This document shows, in pieces, positions 1 to 4,785 of a DNA stretch of 4,902 bases (position 1 is the stretch's first letter; every line of letters starts with the position of its first letter). The stretch is taken from IMG/VR virus record IMGVR_UViG_2740892234_000005. One strand, given 5' to 3'. Under the pieces are notes generated by a model, which was given only the letters and a program-made list of their open reading frames with translations, had not been told where the DNA came from and searched no databases. This DNA is from a virus. Taxonomy: Duplodnaviria > Heunggongvirae > Uroviricota > Caudoviricetes. A program made the translations under genes and the position numbers.

Positions 1-467
1 AATGTACCGTGAAAGCGACATCGTACCGGGAGAGCAGACCGCCACCATCATACTGAAGCAGCGCACAAAAAAATCTTGCGCCGCTGCCTCACGCCCACCA
101 GCAAAACCCGCCACAGGAAAAGACGGTGGTCAGCATTGCCGTTGATCCGGAGTCACCGGCTCAGTATCTCCAGCGCCAGAAACCACAACGGGAAGAGATG
201 CCTGTATACACGCGCTGGGTAAAAACGCAGAAATGCATGACGTGCGGTAATCAGGCAGATGATCCGCATCACATCATTGGTCATGGACTGGGAGGGATGG
301 GAACAAAGGCTGATGATTTGTTTGTTATTCCGCTGTGCCGTAAATGTCATAACGAACTGCACGCCGGGGTAAAAGATTTTGAAGAAAAACACGGCAGCCA
401 GCTGTTGTTGCTGATTCGTTTTTTAATGCACGCGAGAAATTCGGGTGTCCTGAAGTGGAAAGCATGA
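1..467 (+). pseudogene. DUF968-family protein with C-terminal HNH / Endo VII-like zinc-finger nuclease motif; 3' part of a gene that begins upstream of the window; broken by a +1 frameshift (or a homopolymer sequencing error)
   Basis: Frame 2 is open from the window edge (..MYRESDIVPGEQTATIILKQRTK) and matches copy 2 (from 2266) codon for codon up to an A7 run at 67-73, which is A6 in copy 2. After that, frame 2 hits TGA at 143-145, while the homologous reading (..NLAPLPHAHQQNPPQEKTVVSIAVDPESP..) continues in frame 3, open 57-467 (track ORF 126..467 from GTG). C-terminal motifs C-x2-C, DDPHH and LCRKCHNELH are shared with copy 2. Confidence 0.55.
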
Positions 468-833
468 ATGACTGAACGGATAGAATTTGTTTTGCCTTAC
501 CCGCCGACGGTGAATACCTACTGGCGACGTCATGGCAATACGTATTTCATCTCGGAAGCCGGAAAGCGTTATCGCCGTGATGTGGCGCTAATTGTTCGCC
601 AGCAGCGGCTGAAATTAAACCTGTCCGGAAGGCTGGTGATAAAGATTATTGCAGAGCCACCGGATAAGCGCCGTCGTGACCTGGACAATATCCTGAAAGC
701 ACCACTGGATGTGCTGACGCATGCCGGACTTCTCATAGACGACGAGCAGTTTGATGAAATCAATATTGTGCGCGGTCAGCTCGTTCCTGGTGGGCGGCTG
801 GGGATAAAAATCACAGAACTGGAGTGCGCATGA
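468..833 (+). CDS. rusA: RusA-family Holliday junction resolvase (crossover junction endodeoxyribonuclease), copy 1
   Basis: ATG 468 directly abuts the upstream TGA (465-467). The 121-aa product carries RusA hallmarks as I recall them from E. coli RusA: PPTVNTYW-like N-terminus, [10 protein letters not shown] acidic catalytic block, LIDDEQF, and GGRLG near the C-terminus. About 88% aa identity to the second copy at 2737-3108. Confidence 0.9.
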   Translation: MTERIEFVLPYPPTVNTYWRRHGNTYFISEAGKRYRRDVALIVRQQRLKLNLSGRLVIKIIAEPPDKRRRDLDNILKAPLDVLTHAGLLIDDEQFDEINIVRGQLVPGGRLGIKITELECA

Positions 834-1498
834 ATAACCACTATTTACAGTTTGTGCGTGAGCAGCTCATTATCGCCACCGCTGATTTGAGTGGGGCAAC
901 AAAAGGTCAGCTTGAAGCCTGGCAGGAGAATGCCATGTTCGATACAGGGCGTTACAGGCGAAAAAAAATCCGGTACCGCGATGAAGTGACTGGAAAAATG
1001 ATAACGCGGGATAATCCACCAATCCCGGGAAAGCAATCGCTGGCGAAGGTGACGTCAATTCCTCTGGTCAGTCCGGTTGAGTTTTCGACATCATCGTGGC
1101 GGCGGGCTGTTCTGTCTCTTGAAGAACATCATAAAGCCTGGTTGTTGTGGTGTTACAGCGGGAGTATTTGTTGGGAATATCAGATCGCGATAACACAGTG
1201 GGCGTGGAATGAATTTAATACTCAATCCGGTACCAGAAAAATTGCTGGGAAAACGCAGGAACGCCTGAAAAAATTAATCTGGCTGGCGGCGCAGGCAGTA
1301 AAAGCAGAACTTTTTGGTGGGGAAGGTTATGAATACCAGGAGCTGGCATTACTGGCGGGAGTGACAACCAAAAACTGGTCCAAAACATTTACTGGCCACT
1401 GGGTTGCAATGAAACACATTTTTCACCGGCTGGATAATGAGGCTTTATTGTTCGTGACGAGAACACGTTTAAAACAAAAGGCGGCATTTTCACAGTAA
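830..1498 (+). CDS. Late-gene antitermination protein Q (long, roughly 222-aa type)
   Basis: ATG 830 overlaps the rusA stop (ATGA at 830-833) with GGAG 5 nt upstream; GTG 824 is the alternative start used by the ORF track. The gene sits in the slot that lambdoid phages reserve for Q, immediately upstream of a sigma70 promoter plus intrinsic terminator. Family assignment is from position and recollection, not a search. Confidence 0.7.
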   Translation: MNNHYLQFVREQLIIATADLSGATKGQLEAWQENAMFDTGRYRRKKIRYRDEVTGKMITRDNPPIPGKQSLAKVTSIPLVSPVEFSTSSWRRAVLSLEEHHKAWLLWCYSGSICWEYQIAITQWAWNEFNTQSGTRKIAGKTQERLKKLIWLAAQAVKAELFGGEGYEYQELALLAGVTTKNWSKTFTGHWVAMKHIFHRLDNEALLFVTRTRLKQKAAFSQ

Positions 1499-1846: not shown

Positions 1847-1860
1847 TGGAAGACAAAACA

Positions 1861-2724
1861 TTGCTGCCGTTTTTCAGTAACGCACGGGTGATTCGTGCTG
1901 CTGGTGGTGCTGGTGCATTGTCTGACTGGCTGTTGCGCCATATTAAATCCTGCCAGTGGCCACACGGCGATTATCATCACAGCGAAACTGTCATTCACCG
2001 TTATGGTACCGGCGCAATGGTGTTGTGCTGGCACTGCGACAACCAGCTGCGTGACCAGACATCCGAATCACTCGAGCAACTTGCTCATCAAAACCTGTCA
2101 GCATGGATGATTGACGTCATCGGTCACGCAATAAGCGGTACGCAGGAGCGTGAATTATCTCTGGCTGAATTATCCTGGTGGGCGGTCCGCAATCAGGTGG
2201 CGGACGCGCAACCGGAAGCGGTATTACGTCGTTCGCTGGGGGGGCGTGCGGAAAAAATCCGCTCAATGTACCGTGAAAGCGACATCGTGCCGGGAGAGCA
2301 GACCGCCACCAGCATACTGAAGCAGCGCACAAAAAATATTGCGCTACCGCCTCACACCCACCAGCAACAGAACCCACCACAGGAAAAGACGGTGGTCAGC
2401 ATTGCCGTTGATCCGGAGTCTCCGGAATCCTTCATGAAACGACCTAAACGTCGCCGCTGGGTAAATGAGAAATACACACGCTGGGTAAAGACACAGCCGT
2501 GTGCGTGTTGTGGTAAGCCAGCGGACGATCCTCATCATCTGATTAGTCATGGTCAGGGCGGAATGGGAATAAAATCCCACGATATTTTCACGCTACCGCT
2601 GTGTCGGGAGCATCACAACGAGCTTCATGCGGATCCGCTGGCGTTCGAAGAAAAGCATGGTTCCCAGGTTGATTTAATTTTTCGTTTTCTTGATCACGCT
2701 TTTGCAACCGGCGTGCTCGGGTAA
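1861..2724 (+). CDS. DUF968-family protein with C-terminal HNH / Endo VII-like zinc-finger nuclease motif, copy 2 (5'-partial; true start probably in or before the gap)
   Basis: Long open frame running from the gap edge (1847) to TAA 2722-2724; the first in-window candidate start is TTG 1861. The N-terminal region has a Cys/His cluster (C-x4-H..HH..C-x2-C). The C-terminus has C-A-C-C, DDPHH, and LCREHHNELH. A Chi octamer lies inside at 1900-1907. Confidence 0.7.
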   Translation: MLPFFSNARVIRAAGGAGALSDWLLRHIKSCQWPHGDYHHSETVIHRYGTGAMVLCWHCDNQLRDQTSESLEQLAHQNLSAWMIDVIGHAISGTQERELSLAELSWWAVRNQVADAQPEAVLRRSLGGRAEKIRSMYRESDIVPGEQTATSILKQRTKNIALPPHTHQQQNPPQEKTVVSIAVDPESPESFMKRPKRRRWVNEKYTRWVKTQPCACCGKPADDPHHLISHGQGGMGIKSHDIFTLPLCREHHNELHADPLAFEEKHGSQVDLIFRFLDHAFATGVLG

Positions 2725-3108
2725 AAGAGGTTACTGATGCGTATAGAGTTTGTTTTGCCTTACCCGCCGACGGTGAACACCTACTGGCGACGTCGTGGCA
2801 GCACATATTTTGTATCAAAAGCCGGTGAGCGTTATCGCCGGGCTGTGGCGCTTATTGTTCGCCAGCAGCGGCTGAAATTAAGCCTGTCCGGACGGCTGGC
2901 AATAAAAATTATTGCAGAACCACCGGATAAGCGCCGCCGTGACCTGGACAACATTCTGAAAGCACCGCTGGATGCGCTGACGCATGCGGAAGTGCTCATT
3001 GATGACGAGCAGTTTGATGAAATCAATATTGTGCGCGGTCAGCCTGTGCCAGGTGGACGGCTGGGCGTGAAGATTTACGAAATCAGAGGTGGTAACGATG
3101 GCGCGTGA
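2265..3108 (+). repeat. Paralogous segment B (DUF968 3' part + rusA); partner is 1-833
   Basis: See segment A. Copy B carries an intact reading frame through the A6 run at 2331-2336. Confidence 0.85.
2737..3108 (+). CDS. rusA: RusA-family Holliday junction resolvase, copy 2
   Basis: RBS AAGAGG (2726-2731) precedes ATG 2737. The 123-aa product has the same PPTVNTYW / [10 protein letters not shown] / LIDDEQF / GGRLG motifs; its C-terminal tail diverges from copy 1. Confidence 0.9.
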
Positions 3109-3469
3109 TATCCAGATGGTTCTTGAGCGATGGGGGGCATGGGCAGCAAATAATCATGAAGATGTAACATGGCCCTCGATAGCTGCTGGTTTTAAAGGAT
3201 TAATCCCGACTAAAGTGAAATCACGTCCTCAGTGTTCTGATGATGACGCCATGATAATTTGTGGTTGTATGGCACGATTAAACAAGAATAATCAGTATTT
3301 GCACGATTTGTTGGTGGATTATTACGTAGGTGGAATGACATTTATGGCTCTTGCACGTAAGCATAGATGTTCTGATGGGCTTATTGGTAAAAGGCTTTAT
3401 AAAGCGGAAGGTATTATTGAAGGAATGCTTATGGCTCTGAATGTCCGGTTAGATATGGATATGCGGTAG
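3098..3469 (+). CDS. quuD: Short antitermination protein Q (DLP12 QuuD-like)
   Basis: ATG 3098 with GAGGTGG 5 nt upstream; the 5' end overlaps the rusA stop (3106-3108). The 123-aa product ([32 protein letters not shown]..) matches my recollection of the roughly 127-aa QuuD from prophage DLP12. Not verified by search. Confidence 0.7.
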
Positions 3470-3590: not shown

Positions 3591-3621
3591 CAATCTTCAT
3601 CATTAAATAAAAGGAGTGCTT

Positions 3622-4440
3622 ATGTGGATTGTGTTAGTACTGTCACTGTCAACTCTCAGTTGGCATAAGGTAGTGGCTTTTTCATTGTTGACGGTGTCTG
3701 TTGTCCTGGCTGTGCTTAATGATATTATTGATTGGTCGGTGTTATTTTTTGTTGCTACAATCGTTTTTTTTATTATTTTGAAGTTCAACTGGAAATATAA
3801 CGCCTGGGCTAAATCTATATATGAAGTTGGCATAGTTTTATCAGCCATAGCATTATCTTTCCATCTATGGCCAGGGTTTCACAATCCTGTAGTGCTAAAT
3901 TCTGTTACTGTTGGCCCTCAAAGTACTCCCTATACAATGTATTTTAATTTTGATAAAGCGCTGGTGCCATTTTTGTTAGTCCTGTGTACATCTTCTTTGT
4001 TTAAAAAAGAAGTAAAATCAGAAGTGTCTTTGTGGAAGTGGGGGGCTCTGTCGCTCTCTGTTCCTCTTATCCTGTTTTTGGCTGTTTTTTTTGGTGGATT
4101 AAAGCCAGAGATTCATTTTCCTGAGTGGTTGCCAGAGTTTATATTGGCTAATTTGTTTTTTGTGTCTCTGGCAGAGGAATCATTATTTAGAGGGTATATT
4201 CAATCACGGCTATCAGAAGTAACGTCTCCATTGGTTGCATTAATTGTGGCGGCTTTGTTGTTTGGTTTTTATCACTATTCAGGTGGTGCTTTACTTGTAT
4301 TATTTGCCACGTTATCTGGTGTTGTGTATGGATTGTCATGGATGTGGAGTGGGCGTTTGTGGGTTGCCACCCTTTTCCATTTTGGTTTGAATCTGTGTCA
4401 CTTGTTATTCTTTACCTATCCATTTTTAAAACATAATTGA
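3622..4440 (+). CDS. CPBP (CAAX protease / bacteriocin-processing, Abi, PF02517-like) family polytopic intramembrane metalloprotease; prophage cargo (moron) gene
   Basis: RBS AAGGAG (3611-3616) precedes ATG 3622; the track starts at GTG 3616. The 272-aa product has roughly 8-10 hydrophobic helices. The three CPBP signature motifs sit in consecutive C-terminal helices in the canonical order: EExxxR (AEESLFRGY, nt 4174-4191), FxxxH (FGFYHY, nt 4261-4275), HxxxN (HFGLN, nt 4378-4392). The gene is AT-rich with T-rich codons, unlike the flanking phage genes. Confidence 0.8.
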   Translation: MWIVLVLSLSTLSWHKVVAFSLLTVSVVLAVLNDIIDWSVLFFVATIVFFIILKFNWKYNAWAKSIYEVGIVLSAIALSFHLWPGFHNPVVLNSVTVGPQSTPYTMYFNFDKALVPFLLVLCTSSLFKKEVKSEVSLWKWGALSLSVPLILFLAVFFGGLKPEIHFPEWLPEFILANLFFVSLAEESLFRGYIQSRLSEVTSPLVALIVAALLFGFYHYSGGALLVLFATLSGVVYGLSWMWSGRLWVATLFHFGLNLCHLLFFTYPFLKHN

Positions 4441-4681: not shown

Positions 4682-4709
4682 CAAGAGTTATTGGTGTGTC
4701 ACGTTAACC
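4682..4709 (+). repeat. 28-bp direct repeat, left copy (CAAGAGTTATTGGTGTGTCACGTTAACC)
   Basis: Identical 28-mer recurs at 4758-4785 on the other side of the N gap. Confidence 0.9.
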
Positions 4710-4744: not shown

Positions 4745-4754
4745 NNNNNNNNNN
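4745..4754. other. Assembly gap (10 N), scaffold join
   Basis: Run of exactly 10 N, flanked by a 28-bp direct repeat. It truncates a gene that starts at ATG 4726 (MLKQQD..). Confidence 0.95.
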
Positions 4755-4757
4755 CGA

Positions 4758-4785
4758 CAAGAGTTATTGGTGTGTCACGTTAACC
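4758..4785 (+). repeat. 28-bp direct repeat, right copy
   Basis: Identical to 4682-4709. The downstream sequences are both purine-rich but diverge. Confidence 0.9.

Follow-up and report, generated by a model that had tools for sequence, protein, structure and literature searches.

The C-terminal domain of prophage DUF968 proteins is an HNH nuclease domain whose closest relatives appear to be PhiNM1 Gp16, YbcO and P1 Ref

The DUF968 proteins that lambdoid prophages encode near rusA and the antiterminator gene Q carry a C-terminal HNH nuclease domain, an assignment that rests on four independent lines of evidence. On sequence comparison, the closest relatives of this domain appear to be the HNHc_6 proteins (PhiNM1 Gp16-like), YbcO and Ref of phage P1, and not endonuclease VII (endo VII) of phage T4. 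We document its homology, fold and conservation pattern here, and we infer the DNA-cutting role; taken as a whole, we consider it probable that DUF968 proteins of the YdfU type are zinc-stabilised HNH, or His-Me finger, nucleases that act on recombination or replication intermediates. Neither the HNH assignment nor the RusA/Q neighbourhood is new: they were published in 2014 and 2017. The earlier paper noted a zinc-finger HNH motif (PMC4118853), and the later one assigned both DUF968 and DUF1364/YbcO to His-Me finger group 7 and Endonuclease_7 to a separate group 13, named YdfU, listed RusA and Q as neighbours and proposed that the role is in recombination, as for NinG and the RecA-dependent nucleases (PMC5714182). 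PHROGs and several phage GenBank records also already label the gene 'HNH endonuclease'. We found no nuclease assay or other experimental work on any YdfU-type protein in the literature searched.

The whole stretch of DNA analysed here (the window) is 4902 bases long and consists of three contig pieces joined by N10 runs at 1837-1846 and 4745-4754. Each of the first two pieces bears the end of the early-right operon of a lambdoid prophage, with genes for DUF968, RusA and Q, and the best explanation of the window is that the end of this ('nin') operon is present twice, each time in the order DUF968, rusA, Q. The DUF968, rusA and Q genes of both copies lie on the + strand. Near-identical modules in E. 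coli chromosomes are annotated alike, and the DUF968 protein encoded there, for instance at NZ_CP014583.1 341421-342470, has 349 aa.

In the first copy, the 3' part of the DUF968 gene occupies 1..467 (Pfam DUF968 E 1.3e-45, 155.9 bits), its 5' end being cut off by the start of the window. It is followed by rusA at 468..833 (Pfam RusA 56.5 bits) and by a Q gene of the PF06323 type at 830..1498 (Pfam Phage_antiter_Q E 4.7e-90; a related locus is annotated likewise), the start of which overlaps the rusA stop codon (ATGA). When the copies are aligned, an A-run at 66-72 is A7 in this copy and A6 in the second copy and in two E. coli relatives. The extra A produces a +1 frameshift: the frame 2..145 ends in a stop codon, after which the reading frame of the family is taken up again as far as 467, the HNH domain being encoded by 126..467. 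Given this frameshift, the first copy may be a pseudogene, or the change in the A-run is a homopolymer sequencing error.

The second copy comprises the DUF968 gene at 1849..2724 (Pfam DUF968 E 1.3e-73, 247.1 bits), rusA at 2737..3108 (Pfam RusA 58.8 bits; PHROG phrog_34, 'RusA-like Holliday junction resolvase', E 9e-56) and a Q gene of the PF06530 type at 3098..3469, which overlaps the end of rusA by 11 nt and was recognised both by Pfam (Phage_antitermQ E 4.9e-52) and by the annotation of a 97.7%-identical E. coli locus. The DUF968 product is 96% identical to the 349-aa proteins, and because the gap at 1837-1846 cuts the gene, this copy lacks its first ~58 codons relative to them. The gene just after the second Q (3616..4440) is AT-rich and encodes a CPBP/Rce1-like intramembrane protease (Pfam 70.6 bits); it is annotated at the 97.7%-identical E. 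coli locus too, and it has the look of a moron-type insert. On either side of the second gap, at 4683-4709 and 4759-4785, there is an exact direct repeat of 27 nt, AAGAGTTATTGGTGTGTCACGTTAACC, where none is expected by chance, and it probably marks the place where the assembly broke. An Rfam scan of the window returned no match, and a promoter/terminator scan of the window returned nothing bearing on the DUF968 finding.

Both DUF968 copies end in the same series of motifs, which a sequence-only reading had pointed out and which can be read directly from the DNA: a CxxC knuckle, DDPHH, a Gly-rich loop and LCxx[C/H]H..LH. In the second copy (frame 1849..2724), C-A-C-C-G at 2500-2514 is followed by D-D-P-H-H at 2524-2538, a G-Q-G-G-M-G loop and L-C-R-E-H-H-N-E-L-H at 2599-2628, and these core motifs (2500-2628) lie within a C-terminal HNH (beta-beta-alpha-metal) domain encoded at 2464..2721. 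The core of the first copy (234..359, in frame 126..467) contains C-M-T-C-G at 234-248, DDPHH at approximately 258-272, the Gly loop and LCRKCHNELH at approximately 330-359, and matches the Pfam models HNH (PF01844; E 0.0077) and HNH_5 (E 0.02). Of 240 retrieved homologs, 200 contain the composite motif; the fourth zinc ligand is His in 127 of them and Cys in 73. Given this recurrence and the strength of the Pfam DUF968 matches cited above, the motif set is not due to chance.

Profile searches uphold the reading of the C terminus as an HNH-type domain. Both copies score above the 27.8-bit gathering cutoff of DUF968 (PF06147) and belong to that family. For HNHc_6 (PF16784), the first copy exceeds the 26.6-bit cutoff (34.5 bits) and the second falls below it (22.5-24.5 bits); only positions 118-184 of the 204-position model are matched and the Orf/NinB-like N-terminal domain is absent, so the proteins are not full members of that family. 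When 21 diverse DUF968 members were scanned with Pfam, HNHc_6 was matched by all 21 and RecA_dep_nuc by 18. PHROG phrog_96, 'HNH endonuclease', spans the whole 349-aa protein with E 1.5e-174 (query P0124, 96% identical to the second copy). A family profile, built after the removal of many frameshifted fragments from the first homolog search, matched only HNH proteins among the sequences of solved structures, all of them weakly (YbcO 3g27, E 0.026; IscB, 0.63; McrA, 1.5), and a single-sequence search of PDB sequences with the 287-aa fragment returned only noise. The beta-beta-alpha-metal fold that defines the HNH / His-Me finger superfamily is present, and the AF2 models have pLDDT values of 80.4 and 85.9. 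Foldseek comparison of the full-length model with the PDB gave weak matches only, all with E >0.6, of which the better-scoring ones were mostly HNH domains.

The conservation pattern points in the same direction. The second homolog search listed only relatives that are at least 77% identical, and diversity was taken from a representative search. This library-wide profile search recovered 4073 cluster representatives at E <=0.001, and the conservation set consists of the 114 of 150 listed representatives that cover the core, with mutual identity of at most 50%. Among these 114 listed representatives, the proposed catalytic residues are kept in 96% (H47), 97% (H48), 99% (D63), 96% (H74) and 96% (H78; domain numbering) of cases, and the zinc ligands in only 63-82%, the fourth ligand being H, C or E. 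The proteins thus have the residues that characterise the HNH superfamily, namely a His in the first strand, an Asp before the helix and a His in the helix, to which we assign roles from the alignment with HNH profiles. As judged from this alignment, D63, within HD[IL]F, most likely replaces the 'N' of HNH.

Given that the catalytic residues are better kept than the zinc ligands, the pattern fits an enzyme, and it is the opposite of that expected of a purely structural zinc finger. This pattern, together with the retention of all five proposed catalytic residues in the window proteins and in 96-99% of the divergent members listed, makes it improbable that DUF968 is an inert DNA-binding or regulatory zinc-finger protein that merely keeps an HNH-like shape. 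In favour of such a protein, PMC5714182 lists a member of the family as a transcriptional regulator, and the loss of two helix histidines from a DUF968 member of phage P1 indicates that inert members exist. In this P1 protein of 312 aa (M95666.1 3041-3979, between doc and lpa; 170.5 bits), a middle LCWHHDN module is retained, as is the CxxC knuckle, but the HNH helix (CQSCQRDIE) has Gln in place of the metal-binding His and Glu in place of the last His. The protein is probably an inactive member of the family, and P1 has a gene for Ref as well.

Kinship with endo VII, which the sequence-only reading had also proposed, did not withstand comparison. When the DUF968 HNH domain was compared with candidate relatives by hhalign (profile to sequence), T4 endo VII was given a probability of 0.5% and E 0.11, with the zinc knuckles out of register. 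The T4 sequence used was checked and matches PF02945 with E 5e-22 and the dimerisation domain with 1.5e-33. No match to Endonuclease_7 (PF02945) was seen in the 21 members at a threshold of E 10, where HMMER speed filters drop most matches above ~0.1; no C-terminal dimerisation domain (PF09124) was matched in the window proteins or the 21 members; and no endo VII structure was returned by the profile, Pfam or Foldseek searches. Furthermore, the Asn of HNELH, which had been equated with that of the endo VII motif CxxCN, is poorly conserved: 13% of the 114 listed representatives have it, whereas 37% have Asp and 16% Thr at this position.

The second HNH junction enzyme compared, lambda Rap/NinG (PF05766), is encoded at a comparable place in the lambda nin region, two genes before Q, and likewise gave no specific match (hhalign 2.4%, E 0.019). 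Both T4 endo VII and lambda Rap have the HNH superfamily in common with DUF968 and are without specific sequence or structural similarity to it. Thus, even though endo VII has the same superfamily and the same zinc-bracketed layout (CxxC - His - CxxC), and Endonuclease_7 is a His-Me finger group in its own right (PMC5714182), the out-of-register alignment, the missing Pfam match, the poorly conserved Asn and the absence of a dimerisation domain that the T4 control sequence does show make it very unlikely that DUF968 is a dimeric junction resolvase of the T4 type that duplicates the Holliday junction role of RusA.

By the same hhalign comparison, the HNH domain was matched to phiMR25 orf17, a Gp16 ortholog of the HNHc_6 family (96.9%, E 1.5e-10), to YbcO (81.6%, E 1.1e-5) and to P1 Ref (71.8%, E 3.5e-5). 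The C-terminal HNH domains of orf17/Gp16 and DUF968 are clearly homologous, with 36% identity over 69 aa and reciprocal Pfam matches (orf17 to DUF968, 34.8 bits; the first copy to HNHc_6, 34.5 bits). Their CxxC and LCREHHNE.H motifs are identical, the helix reading CREHHNEQH in orf17 and CREHHNELH in the window. The orf17 residues Cys145, Cys148, His157, Cys181, His184, His185 and His189 have the numbers reported for Gp16 of PhiNM1, and the CxxC and C-R-E-H motifs of these two proteins are also alike. For Gp16 of PhiNM1, a Staphylococcus phage related to phiMR25, the binding of dsDNA, the nicking of DNA in vitro, an interaction with RecA and a contribution to phage propagation have been shown (PMC12817073). 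However, Gp16 has a NinB/Orf-like N-terminal domain and is encoded beside genes for SSB and an annealing protein in an early recombination module. In the DUF968 protein of the window, by contrast, the N-terminal ~190 residues form an unrelated module that includes a separate Cys/His site, and the gene precedes Q.

YbcO/DUF1364 (PF07102, PDB 3G27; prophage DLP12 and phage 82) is a stand-alone domain of 96 aa that forms a separate Pfam family, and the relationship is a remote one; the window proteins have no PF07102 match. Ref (PF16786 RecA_dep_nuc, PDB 3PLW) has the signature CxxC, LHHI.G and LPLCRWHH in common with DUF968; the window copy lies outside the RecA_dep_nuc family, with 14.9 bits against a cutoff of 26.9, and the best of the 21 members reaches E 8.6e-5. 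Ref has only 186 aa and is without a counterpart of the N-terminal and middle modules of DUF968. It cuts only DNA that is bound by RecA, within D-loops, and a charged and disordered N-terminal segment serves as its DNA anchor (PMC4330346). In the DUF968 protein, the HNH domain is preceded by a basic segment, RPKRRRW, and by a linker that is disordered (AF2 pLDDT <50 at residues 229-240), and these resemble the anchor of Ref.

An additional Cys/His cluster that had been noted toward the N terminus of DUF968 is indeed present and is conserved. In the second copy, this middle module is encoded at 1951..2043 (C..YHH..LCWHCDN; family consensus C..YCH..LCWHHDN) and is probably a second zinc site. 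Among 34 full-length members with 24-96% identity, C93 and C118 are invariant and W119 is nearly so. The AF2 model of the module consists of a helix, a beta hairpin and a second helix, a layout like that of an HNH unit, and hhalign aligns it co-linearly, if weakly, with the C-terminal HNH domain (P 0.012, 3.5% probability). As a lead only, we note that the middle module may be a degenerate internal duplicate of the HNH unit. No Pfam model covers it, and PHROG phrog_11007, of unknown function, matches it; for the N-terminal 190 residues, no similar solved structure was found by profile, Foldseek or 182-aa PDB sequence searches. Some members of 182-189 aa (e.g. P0061 and P0069) have the first ~50 residues joined straight to the HNH domain, the middle module being absent.

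The sequence-only reading had also described DUF968 and RusA as two nucleases encoded in tandem and, in the first copy, translationally coupled. The tandem is real in the window, where the DUF968 stop codon of the first copy (465-467) abuts the rusA ATG (468-470) as TGA-ATG and a 12-nt spacer with an AAGAGG Shine-Dalgarno sequence separates the stop codon of the second copy from the ATG at 2737, and it is common in E. coli. However, its order, adjacency and coupling are specific to the Escherichia arrangement. We used a sample of 80 loci from different Enterobacterales species, with HNH domains 63-98% identical to that of the window, in which RusA genes on the same strand within 3.5-kb flanks were called from Pfam scans of clustered neighbour ORFs and confirmed on representatives. 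A RusA-family gene is present in 53 of the 80 loci, and none was found within the 3.5-kb flanks in the other 27. It lies upstream of DUF968 in 52 loci (12 adjacent or overlapping, 38 with one or two genes between, 2 further away) and downstream, immediately so, in a single locus from Escherichia albertii. In other genera, the arrangement usually starts with RusA and ends with DUF968 and Q, frequently with a gene for an antirepressor (ANT/Rha/ORF6N/KilA-N) or a DNA methyltransferase between RusA and DUF968. Both the DUF968 and the RusA Pfam domains are matched in a single 447-aa E. coli database protein (P0171), which arose from the two neighbouring genes either by read-through fusion or as an artefact of a frameshift.

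That a His-Me finger gene precedes rusA is not new: in the K-12 prophage DLP12, ybcO overlaps rusA by 4 nt. The frequent association of DUF968 with RusA (53/80) fits a shared role in recombination, although the data do not call for a pathway with both enzymes, because RusA adjacency is not conserved. The nearly constant neighbour of DUF968 is Q, which is immediately downstream in at least 73 of the 80 loci (45 PF06530, 23 PF03589 and 5 PF06323). Phage HNH genes are often mobile or linked to packaging (PMC12315714; PMC12817073), and DUF968 might be imagined as a selfish or auxiliary enzyme of this kind, either a homing endonuclease or a terminase partner that aids cos cleavage like HK97 gp74. 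Its fixed place immediately upstream of Q and far from terminase genes, its occurrence as one orthologous, full-length protein of three modules across Enterobacterales, and the fact that the gene is not inserted within another gene render such an origin highly implausible.

We therefore return to the reading of DUF968 as a zinc-stabilised nuclease of recombination or replication intermediates, in which the protein would form one clade with HNHc_6 (PhiNM1 Gp16), YbcO/DUF1364 and P1 Ref. In 349-aa numbering, a structural zinc would be held by C276, C279, C310 and H/C313, H288 (the second His of DDPHH) would act as the general base, D303 in HD[IL]F would stand for the HNH 'N', and the catalytic metal would be bound by H314 and H318 of the helix. 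These roles are not secure, because the toxicity of Gp16 was not relieved when His157, which corresponds to the proposed general base, was changed to Ala (H157A; PMC12817073). By analogy with Ref and Gp16, the protein would nick or cut the DNA of intermediates of recombination or replication early in lytic growth; the substrate and any RecA dependence are conjecture on our part. RusA, where encoded nearby, might then resolve the resulting Holliday junctions. A more specific version of this scheme, which we put forward only tentatively and judge to be doubtful at present, is that YdfU-type DUF968 proteins are RecA-guided nickases like Ref, in which the middle module, as a degenerate HNH/treble-clef copy, recognises DNA or the RecA filament, and that together with RusA they form a lambdoid module for D-loop cutting and junction resolution in place of lambda Rap.

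These proteins are very common in prophages. The DUF968-Q module is matched in 4421 of 5426 complete E. coli genomes, often with rusA nearby, and such modules are present in many Stx-converting phages. For P1 Ref, an effect on sensitivity to DNA-damaging antibiotics has been shown (PMC4713147). If the DUF968 proteins are nucleases like Ref, their production early in induction could have consequences for recombination, for the mosaicism of prophages and for the response to DNA-damaging antibiotics.
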